A stretch of 64,000 nucleotides of DNA from NCBI RefSeq assembly GCF_017348835.2, contig NZ_CP071375.1. One strand, 5' to 3'. The DNA comes from Escherichia coli (GTDB taxonomy: Bacteria; Pseudomonadota; Gammaproteobacteria; Enterobacterales; Enterobacteriaceae). Below are positions 16,113 to 18,029 of the stretch, piece by piece; positions within the stretch are counted from its first letter, which is position 1, and each line of letters starts with the position of its first letter. A program made the position numbers and the translations under genes. The notes under the pieces are model-generated. The model was not told the DNA's origin. It made no database searches and worked only from the letters and a program-made list of their open reading frames with translations.

Positions 16113-16267
16113 AAATTGTGCACTCAACACAGTGATTATTTAGCGTAAAACCTGATGAAAAAACAATCTTTATGTAACGATTGTGTGATGATGTGGATAC
16201 AAAAAATTTACTTAACCAGCTGGAGATAGCAGATGGATGCACTAAATAAGTGCGTTGAGGCGGGCTG

Positions 16268-16300
16268 CAAAACAAAACGGCCTCCTGTCAGGAAGCCGCT
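16268..16300 (-). terminator. Candidate terminator downstream of dps
   Basis: Imperfect hairpin cggcctcctg/caggaagccg with T-rich tract on the minus strand. Confidence 0.45.
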
Positions 16301-16339
16301 TTTATCGTGTACTAAAGTTCTGCACCATCAGCGATGGAT

Positions 16340-16987
<648 letters not shown>

Positions 16988-17105
16988 TTAGATATATTGA
17001 TAAGAACAATTCTTATTTATTTGCTCGCCAGGAATTTTCGGAATAAATATGCTTTTGCATAATTCGATATATAAAGACGGTGTAGAGGAAAAGTAGCGAG
17101 AAATT

Positions 17106-17131
17106 CTGCATGGTTATGCATAACCATGCAG
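17106..17131. repeat. Perfect 26-bp palindrome ctgcatggttatgcataaccatgcag just 3' of rhtA
   Basis: Exact reverse-complement symmetry; possible rhtA terminator hairpin or dimeric protein-binding site. Confidence 0.7.
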
Positions 17132-17141
17132 AAATGTAAAT

Positions 17142-18029
17142 TTAATTAATGTCTAATTCTTTTATTTTGCTCTCTTTGCGTACTGTCAGCGTAGAACCCA
17201 TTGAAGCGGCGATAATCGCGCCGAGCGCCAGCAGCTGTATGGGTGTCAGTGTTTCTCCGAGGAAAATCATCCCGGAAACGGCAGCCAGCGCCGGTTCCAT
17301 GCTCATCAGCGTACCAAATGTCCGTGTTGGCAAACGGGTGAGGGCAATCATTTCCAGCGAATAAGGCAGAGCGGTCGAGAGAATAGCGACAGCCAGACCC
17401 AATGGAATAACCGACCAGTGCCAGAGTGCTTCACCAGCCTGAAGCGCTCCAATTGGCACGAAAATTAACGCTGCAATCAACGAACCAATTGCCACCGTCG
17501 CAGGGCCATGTTCCGCTCCTGCGCGTTGCCCACTTAAAATGTAAATAGCCCAACAAGCCCCGGCCCCCAGTGCCAGCGCACAGCCGGTTAAATCGACATG
17601 GGAAACGTCTTGCCCCAGAGGTAGCAGGAACCACAGACCAAGAACCGCCAGCACAACCCAGACGAAATCTACCGGGCGACGAGAAGAGAACAGCGCCACC
17701 GCCAGTGGTCCGGTGAACTCCAGCGCCACCGCAATACCCAGCGGTACTGTCTGAATAGAAAGATAAAAAAGATAATTCATCCCACCCAGCGAAACGCCGT
17801 AAAACAACAGCGGTAACCGTTGCTCTTTGGCAAAGCGCAGTCGCCATGGCTTAAAGAACGCGATGAGGATCAGCGTTCCTAATGCCAGGCGCAGCGCAGT
17901 GACACCCGGTGCGCCCACCAGAGGAAAAAGTGACTTAGCTAACGAGGCTCCACCCTGAATAGACGCCATGGCAACGAGCAATATGACTATTGGTAACCAG
18001 ACCGGCATTTTACGTAATGAACCAGGCAT
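17142..18029 (-). CDS. rhtA: Threonine/homoserine exporter RhtA (DMT/EamA family)
   Basis: ORF 17142..18041 trimmed to MPGSLRKMPVWLPIV start (295 aa). Confidence 0.88.
   Translation of the reverse strand: MPGSLRKMPVWLPIVILLVAMASIQGGASLAKSLFPLVGAPGVTALRLALGTLILIAFFKPWRLRFAKEQRLPLLFYGVSLGGMNYLFYLSIQTVPLGIAVALEFTGPLAVALFSSRRPVDFVWVVLAVLGLWFLLPLGQDVSHVDLTGCALALGAGACWAIYILSGQRAGAEHGPATVAIGSLIAALIFVPIGALQAGEALWHWSVIPLGLAVAILSTALPYSLEMIALTRLPTRTFGTLMSMEPALAAVSGMIFLGETLTPIQLLALGAIIAASMGSTLTVRKESKIKELDIN

Follow-up and report, generated by a model that had tools for sequence, protein, structure and literature searches.

A perfect palindrome between rhtA and dps of Escherichia coli is most likely the DNA image of a conserved stem-loop at the 3' end of rhtA mRNA

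The intergenic region between rhtA and dps of Escherichia coli contains a long perfect palindrome, and the question raised by this locus is whether the palindrome serves as DNA, for example as the site of a protein acting on dps, or whether it merely mirrors the structure of an RNA transcribed across it. The window analysed is a 64-kb stretch of E. coli DNA to which all positions refer (Table 1), and the gene names rhtA and dps were taken from the RefSeq annotation of the identical O157:H7 sequence and the near-identical K-12 sequence. RefSeq has no feature annotated on the palindrome. The 26-bp core ctgcatggttatgcataaccatgcag is exactly self-complementary, and a repeat finder extended it to a perfect palindrome of 30 bp with two 15-nt arms (17104–17118 and 17119–17133) that are 100% complementary with a spacer of 0, in agreement with a first-pass annotation that had called it a 26-bp palindrome extendable to 30 bp. 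The same annotation had correctly placed it past the rhtA stop codon and upstream of dps, but the gap to the stop is 8 nt and not about 10. The distance from the palindrome to the dps ATG (16843) is 261 bp, and the dps promoter is roughly 220–250 bp away, with the hairpin upstream of it. Palindromes of such length had further been said to be uncommon, and this holds within the window, where no other perfect palindrome is longer than 14 bp; among Markov shuffles of the window (n = 200) the longest palindrome was 26 bp once and never 30 bp, and the palindrome therefore exceeds chance. A second copy of the 30-mer, allowing up to three mismatches, was not found in the 64-kb window. Matches to the half-site numbered 4 in the window against 1.8 expected, two of them being the palindrome itself, which is not above chance. 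Positions 17040–17200 are 100% identical to E. coli O157:H7 genomes, and a few SNPs distinguish K-12 MG1655 from the window in the distal part of the region upstream of dps, none of them inside the palindrome. In K-12 (NC_000913.3) the palindrome occupies 849,172–849,201.

Table 1. Features of the rhtA-dps region (window positions) and hairpin arms from Escherichia coli and other genera.
Feature	Position	Strand	Basis	Sequence (left arm / right arm)
Perfect 30-bp palindrome; as RNA, putative rhtA 3' stem-loop	17104..17133	-	repeat arms, fold, covariation, covariance model score	
26-bp palindrome core, as given in the first-pass annotation	17106..17131	.	sequence	
rhtA CDS, threonine/homoserine exporter, 295 aa; stop 17142-17144	17142..18029	-	ORF and RefSeq annotation	
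dps CDS, next gene downstream, same strand as rhtA	16340..16843	-	ORF and RefSeq annotation	
Pyrimidine-rich C>G tract 3' of the hairpin, candidate rut-like Rho-loading region, holds the weak U-run	17064..17103	-	composition; function putative	UUUCUCGCUACUUUUCCUCUACACCGUCUUUAUAUAUCGA
E. coli hairpin arms				TTCTGCATGGTTA / TAACCATGCAGAA
Citrobacter hairpin arms				TTCTGCATGATG / CATCATGCAGAA
Kosakonia hairpin arms				ATTCAGTATGAGA / TCTTATGCTGAAT
Buttiauxella hairpin arms				ATTTACCGTGGT / ACCACGGTAAAT
Leclercia hairpin arms				TTTTGCCGGGAAG / CTTCCCGGCAAAA
Atlantibacter hairpin arms				ATTCCGCATC / GATGCGGAAT

With a probability of roughly 85%, the palindrome is the DNA image of a hairpin at the 3' end of rhtA mRNA, and comparison between species suggests that the feature is most likely an ordinary, unannotated 3' stem-loop of this mRNA, conserved across Enterobacteriaceae. 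A scan for RhtA with one genome per species gave 80 loci from about 20 enterobacterial genera, and dps was found 3' of rhtA in 79 of these at a near-constant spacing of ~300 bp. In almost every locus the 60 nt past the rhtA stop fold into a single hairpin of 12–16 bp at the same position, lying 5–15 nt after the stop across Enterobacteriaceae. The stem sequences differ between orthologous loci, e.g., TTCTGCATGG, TTTACCGTGG, and TTTTGCCGGGA (arms from individual genera are given in Table 1). From an alignment of 69 distinct orthologous sequences made with MAFFT (alignment A1), RNAalifold predicted an 11-pair consensus stem with compensatory double changes at every pair. For a stem of 14 pairs, 91.5% of the cells are standard pairs against 33–45% when the 3' partners are slid by 1–3 columns, and in these 69 sequences 13 of the 14 pairs have changed on both sides. 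The observed values of pairing and covariation were reached by none of 500 shuffles, a significance that is overstated as the sequences are phylogenetically related. When the entire spacer between the two genes is aligned, the hairpin stands out as a conserved island beside poorly conserved distal intergenic DNA, and a separate, strongly conserved block comprises the dps promoter, the OxyR region and the ribosome-binding site. The hairpin is still present after rhtA in a locus without dps downstream (L072); given synteny in 79 of 80 loci, conservation does not cleanly assign the hairpin to rhtA or to the dps upstream region. The stem does not vary evenly. Its base, UAUU...AAUA, and two inner G-C pairs are near-invariant across genera (A1 columns 17–20, 24, 27, 48, and 52–56, corresponding to about 17104–17108 and 17129–17135 in the window), while the middle of the stem is rewritten and covaries freely. 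The loop UGCAU is common to Escherichia, Citrobacter, Salmonella, and Superficieibacter.

Whether the complementarity is kept for the sake of DNA or RNA can be judged from the strand on which mismatches are tolerated, as a DNA palindrome or protein site should treat G·T and A·C alike whereas in an RNA stem G·U is the only one of the two to be accepted, on the strand that is transcribed. The stem columns of alignment A1 contain 58 cells with G·U and 20 with A·C, and when events are counted once per genus-level group and column the numbers are 35 G·U against 16 A·C (binomial p = 0.011). One sequence, from a Pantoea MAG (L077), was misaligned by MAFFT, so that the G·U and A·C events counted for it are spurious; without it the events are 32 G·U and 12 A·C and the direction is unchanged. 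The RNA fold is more stable for the sense strand in 51 loci, for the antisense strand in 12 and equal in 6 (mean difference −2.2 kcal/mol), and standard pairs make up 91.5% of the cells when the strand is read in sense and about 87.5% when it is read in antisense. With a covariance model derived from A1, the site in the window obtains 48.6 bits on the minus strand compared to 29.8 bits on the plus strand, and no other match in the 64-kb window was convincing. In Rfam no meaningful match was found on the hairpin (RUF4 at 22.9 bits with a gathering score of 55, E = 0.12). In E. coli the sense-strand (minus) RNA is predicted to form a 13-bp stem, UUCUGCAUGGUUA pairing with UAACCAUGCAGAA, around a UGCA loop, with a folding energy of −18.7 kcal/mol (z = −4.2 relative to shuffles); 5 of the 13 pairs are G-C, i.e., the stem is AU-rich and borderline with respect to the GC-richness of terminators. 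The hairpin thus shows both of the signs sought of a structured RNA under purifying selection, compensatory pairs and a strand-specific G·U bias. As these occur on the rhtA-sense strand, selection acts on the structure of the transcript, and the comparative evidence indicates that it is the rhtA-strand RNA hairpin and not a protein-binding DNA sequence that is under selection.

The palindrome is perfect in E. coli owing to a single base of the loop. Close relatives (e.g., L020 and L022) have ...CATGGTT-TGCAT-AACCATG... with a 5-nt loop, and Escherichia has GGTTA-TGCA-TAACC, i.e., one extra A compared to the relatives. This extra A adds a base pair and leaves a self-complementary UGCA tetraloop, and as a result the DNA becomes palindromic through its centre. 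The perfect palindrome including the loop is found in all five Escherichia lineages with flanks that diverge. In E. albertii (L003, 1811–1842) a C-G pair of the arms has become T-A by a compensatory change and the palindrome is perfect over 32 bp, and in an E. coli-like lineage (L002, 2531–2564) a flank change lengthens the palindrome to 34 bp. Outside Escherichia the arms are split by a non-palindromic loop of 4–9 nt. The perfection of the palindrome is an Escherichia-specific by-product of the hairpin and not a selected feature. The locus is a small and clean example of how compensatory changes shape the evolution of a terminator-type hairpin, and it shows how a perfect DNA palindrome may arise as the by-product of a one-base change in a loop.

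Extragenic palindromic repeats are frequently found between genes of E. coli, and this frequency would be in favour of regarding the palindrome as a REP/BIME-like repeat, the end of a mobile element or a chance palindrome without function. The rhtA element resembles REP/BIME sequences in being an extragenic palindrome that could stabilise the upstream mRNA against exonucleases, but REPs are multi-copy with a shared consensus whereas the rhtA element is single-copy with a sequence of its own. Of 5426 complete E. coli genomes, 5421 contain its 161-bp neighbourhood, at a median of one place in each and always beside rhtA, and 5420 contain the 30-mer by itself at a single locus, the two "places" that it gives per genome being the same site on both strands. 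The 30-mer is at least 99% identical in 5407 genomes, and a second full palindrome site was not found in the complete E. coli genomes searched. The first-pass annotation had named membership of a common repeat family as the finding that would speak against its proposals, and the single locus, the lack of another copy in the window and the lack of an Rfam family all contradict such membership. Chance is excluded by the conservation of position and structure across genera. Copy number and cross-genus conservation therefore refute a repeat or chance origin, and the probability left to it is close to nil. The first-pass annotation had also suggested an operator, i.e., a site for a dimeric transcription factor regulating dps or rhtA, and a perfect 30-bp dyad that lies between genes and upstream of dps, itself under heavy regulation, is indeed what such a site could look like. 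Between genera, however, only the complementarity of the arms and not their sequence is kept, G·U wobbles are tolerated, the site lies at the 3' end of rhtA, about 220–250 bp from the dps promoter, each E. coli genome has a single locus, and neither half-sites nor full sites are above chance in the window. A regulator of the palindrome was not found in the literature searched. An NsrR-like ATGCAT motif was considered and rejected, as it fits the half-site badly and is not shared between genera. Arms that are free to change while their pairing is kept rule out the operator, which must be regarded as very improbable. A DNA-level role of a different kind is already in print. A 30-bp inverted repeat was described as the centre of a Dps footprint in the distal dps region, and a cruciform or architectural role in connection with Dps was suggested (Antipov et al., 2017, PLoS One 12:e0182800); it is the same DNA as the rhtA palindrome, as distance from Pdps, the 30-bp length and primer mapping agree. 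In such a scheme the palindrome would be an architectural site in the DNA upstream of dps, extruding or breathing as a cruciform that is recognised by Dps or another nucleoid protein and tunes the topology of the dps promoter. The F1-R1 primers of Melekhov et al. (2015, PLoS One 10:e0126504, PMC4433220) map to about 17063–17273, and the bands reported there as protected in vitro at about 113 and 175 bp from F1 (roughly positions 17160 and 17098) lie on either side of the palindrome, which together with the retention of the perfect palindrome and its loop in all five Escherichia lineages is in favour of this scheme. On the other hand, Dps bound more weakly to the distal F1-R1 fragment, which contains the palindrome, than to the promoter-proximal fragment (Melekhov et al., 2015), and binding of Dps is broadly non-specific. 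G·U wobbles are mismatches in DNA, yet they are tolerated and outnumber A·C. A spacer-free perfect palindrome is found only in Escherichia, with G·T positions elsewhere, and the non-palindromic loops outside Escherichia disfavour extrusion, so that the conserved function is unlikely to be that of a DNA cruciform; as an explanation of the locus the architectural site is improbable. Antipov et al. (2017) and Melekhov et al. (2015) treat the repeat as a DNA structural target of Dps and neither considers the rhtA transcript, whereas the comparative evidence presented here points to selection on an rhtA RNA hairpin. A search of the literature on an rhtA/ybiF hairpin, terminator or UTR gave nothing, and the two Dps papers were the only ones to mention the repeat. 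A Dps target and an RNA hairpin are not mutually exclusive in E. coli.

If the palindrome is the image of a hairpin in rhtA mRNA, as preferred here, it remains to be considered how that hairpin would define the end of the transcript. The first-pass annotation had offered an rhtA terminator hairpin with a weak U-tract. Of this the conserved RNA stem-loop on the sense strand is confirmed and the weakness of the U-tract likewise, but a canonical intrinsic terminator it is not. The tail of the E. coli hairpin (UUUCUCGCUACUUUUCC / UUUCUCGC) has 4 U in 8 nt and no U-tract, and a terminator scan of the window made no call at the site. In 63 of the 69 loci there are 4 U or fewer in the first 8 nt past the stem. 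The GC core is followed by AAUAUU or AAUUUC (orthologue consensus AAUAUUC(C/U)CC), starting with AA in nearly all species, and an upstream A-tract is absent, the 5' flank being U-rich (UAUU) and the 3' flank AAUA. For comparison, the dps terminator AAAAGCGGCUUCCUGACAGGAGGCCGUUUUGUUUUG (16262–16302, minus strand) has a textbook A-tract, GC-stem and U-tract, and dps hairpin tails start with UUUU in most sampled loci. The rhtA hairpin is like such canonical terminators in size and stability, in lying just past the stop and in being on the sense strand; it differs in its AU-rich stem, in the AAU after the GC core and in having neither a 7–8 nt U-tract nor an A-tract. Counted over the 10 nt after the outermost G-C pair, the median number of U is 4 at rhtA and 5 at the hairpins that follow dps in these genomes (p = 8e-6, fewer at rhtA), a control that is noisy as the automatic choice sometimes takes another hairpin. 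A control based on tail scores of the dps hairpins was dropped, since MFE folding draws the dps U-tract into an A-U extension of the stem. The main rival is a weak, non-canonical intrinsic (Rho-independent) terminator of rhtA, in which the short UUUCU run would release some polymerases without Rho. It is consistent with the stable hairpin (−18.7 kcal/mol) so close to the stop codon and with the E. coli tail UUUCUCGCUACUUUU, which scores about −4 (moderate) on a TransTermHP-style tail scale. Textbook terminators occupy the same place in distant genera, namely CAGCCCGTTCAAACGGGCTTTTCTTC in Mangrovibacter (L067) and AACCCG..CGGGTTATTTTTT in L070, and canonical terminators at the same spot suggest that the site acts as the end of the rhtA transcript across taxa; mixed or transitional terminators have also been noted (Dar and Sorek, 2018, PMC6061677). 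Against intrinsic release stand the terminator scan, the lack of an A-tract and the AA, not U, that follows the GC core in nearly all species. Moreover, the U-run is not kept even within Escherichia, as the tails of E. albertii and of the cryptic clades read AAUAUUCC and AAUAUUAC. Intrinsic release is a possible but less likely explanation.

A better fit, and one given a slight preference over all else taken together, is release by Rho in the C-rich tract combined with a hairpin that blocks exonucleases, where both the transcript end and the dependence on Rho are proposed from sequence and by analogy with known transcripts. In Rho-dependent E. coli transcripts, precise steady-state 3' ends are found just after stable stem-loops that lack a U-tract and an A-tract, C is enriched over G and rut sites occur immediately downstream of such stem-loops, and the ends arise as PNPase and RNase II digest the RNA up to the hairpin (Dar and Sorek, 2018, PMC6061677); conserved 3' stem-loops have been stated to be general (bioRxiv 10.1101/2023.10.02.560326). 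The rhtA hairpin shares with these protective stem-loops (Dar and Sorek, 2018, NAR 46:6797; the model of Peters et al.) its location after the coding sequence and a folding energy like that of intrinsic terminators, as well as the lack of U-tract and A-tract and the excess of C over G downstream. It is stable, with no U-tract after it and no A-tract before it, and the RNA downstream is C-rich and G-poor by composition. The first 40 nt 3' of the E. coli hairpin have 12 C and 3 G, a C-G excess within the top 3% of 40-nt segments of the window, and in 60 of 69 orthologous loci the RNA past the hairpin has more C than G, a measure that is a compositional proxy for rut only. The lack of a U-tract along with this C-rich, G-poor stretch makes Rho the probable agent of release. 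In the preferred model a stem-loop forms at the 3' end of rhtA mRNA just past the stop, RNA polymerase is probably released mostly by Rho somewhat downstream, in the C-rich and G-poor stretch, and the 3'-5' exonucleases PNPase and RNase II would subsequently shorten the transcript as far as the hairpin. The hairpin would block further trimming and thereby fix and stabilise the 3' end of rhtA mRNA, and termination in the tract would also prevent transcription of rhtA from running into the dps promoter, which is tightly regulated. No data on the 3' end of the rhtA transcript or on bicyclomycin were found in the literature and datasets searched, and rhtA (b0813) has no entry in the supplements of Adams 2021 and TERMITe 2025 as searched, an absence that is not conclusive.

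The rhtA hairpin departs from the stem-loops of Dar and Sorek (2018) in that the conservation of its base and loop goes beyond the needs of a generic barrier. A plain barrier to exonucleases does not account for the near-invariance of the stem base, the two inner G-C pairs and, in close relatives, the loop, which may be due to slow divergence, contact with a nuclease or an RNA chaperone, or a secondary constraint at the level of DNA. It is tempting to speculate that the latter amounts to dual use, in which the rhtA 3' RNA hairpin is also, in Escherichia specifically, a cruciform in supercoiled DNA that is recognised by Dps. Such dual use is improbable. Were it true, the near-invariant base and loop would represent a second constraint, from recognition by protein, and the consequence could be that Dps stimulates its own gene in a structure-based positive autoregulation, or that termination after rhtA and read-through into dps depend on the state of the nucleoid.

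The significance beyond annotation is little. RhtA is an amino-acid exporter used in threonine production strains, and its gene gains a 3' boundary with evolutionary support. The putative transcript end also suggests how the strongly regulated dps promoter may be shielded from upstream transcription. As the RNA stem is what is conserved, the Dps footprint around the 30-bp repeat should not be taken as evidence for a dedicated DNA-structural regulatory site.

Some minor observations were made in the same region. The dps terminator matched ctRNA_p42d (E = 0.004) and STnc70 (E = 0.37) in Rfam, and these weak matches appear to be generic hairpin similarity. An inverted repeat TATGC-AAAA-GCATA (minus strand) at 17048–17063 shares TTATGCA with the centre of the palindrome; it was considered as a partner site and set aside, being conserved only in E. 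coli and E. albertii and thus probably not functional across the family. In the rhtA-dps spacer as a whole (16844–17141; loci L002–L081) the parts conserved in sequence are only the hairpin, a AATTAAGAAT-like motif and the proximal dps block, the conserved motif being located near 17010–17025.
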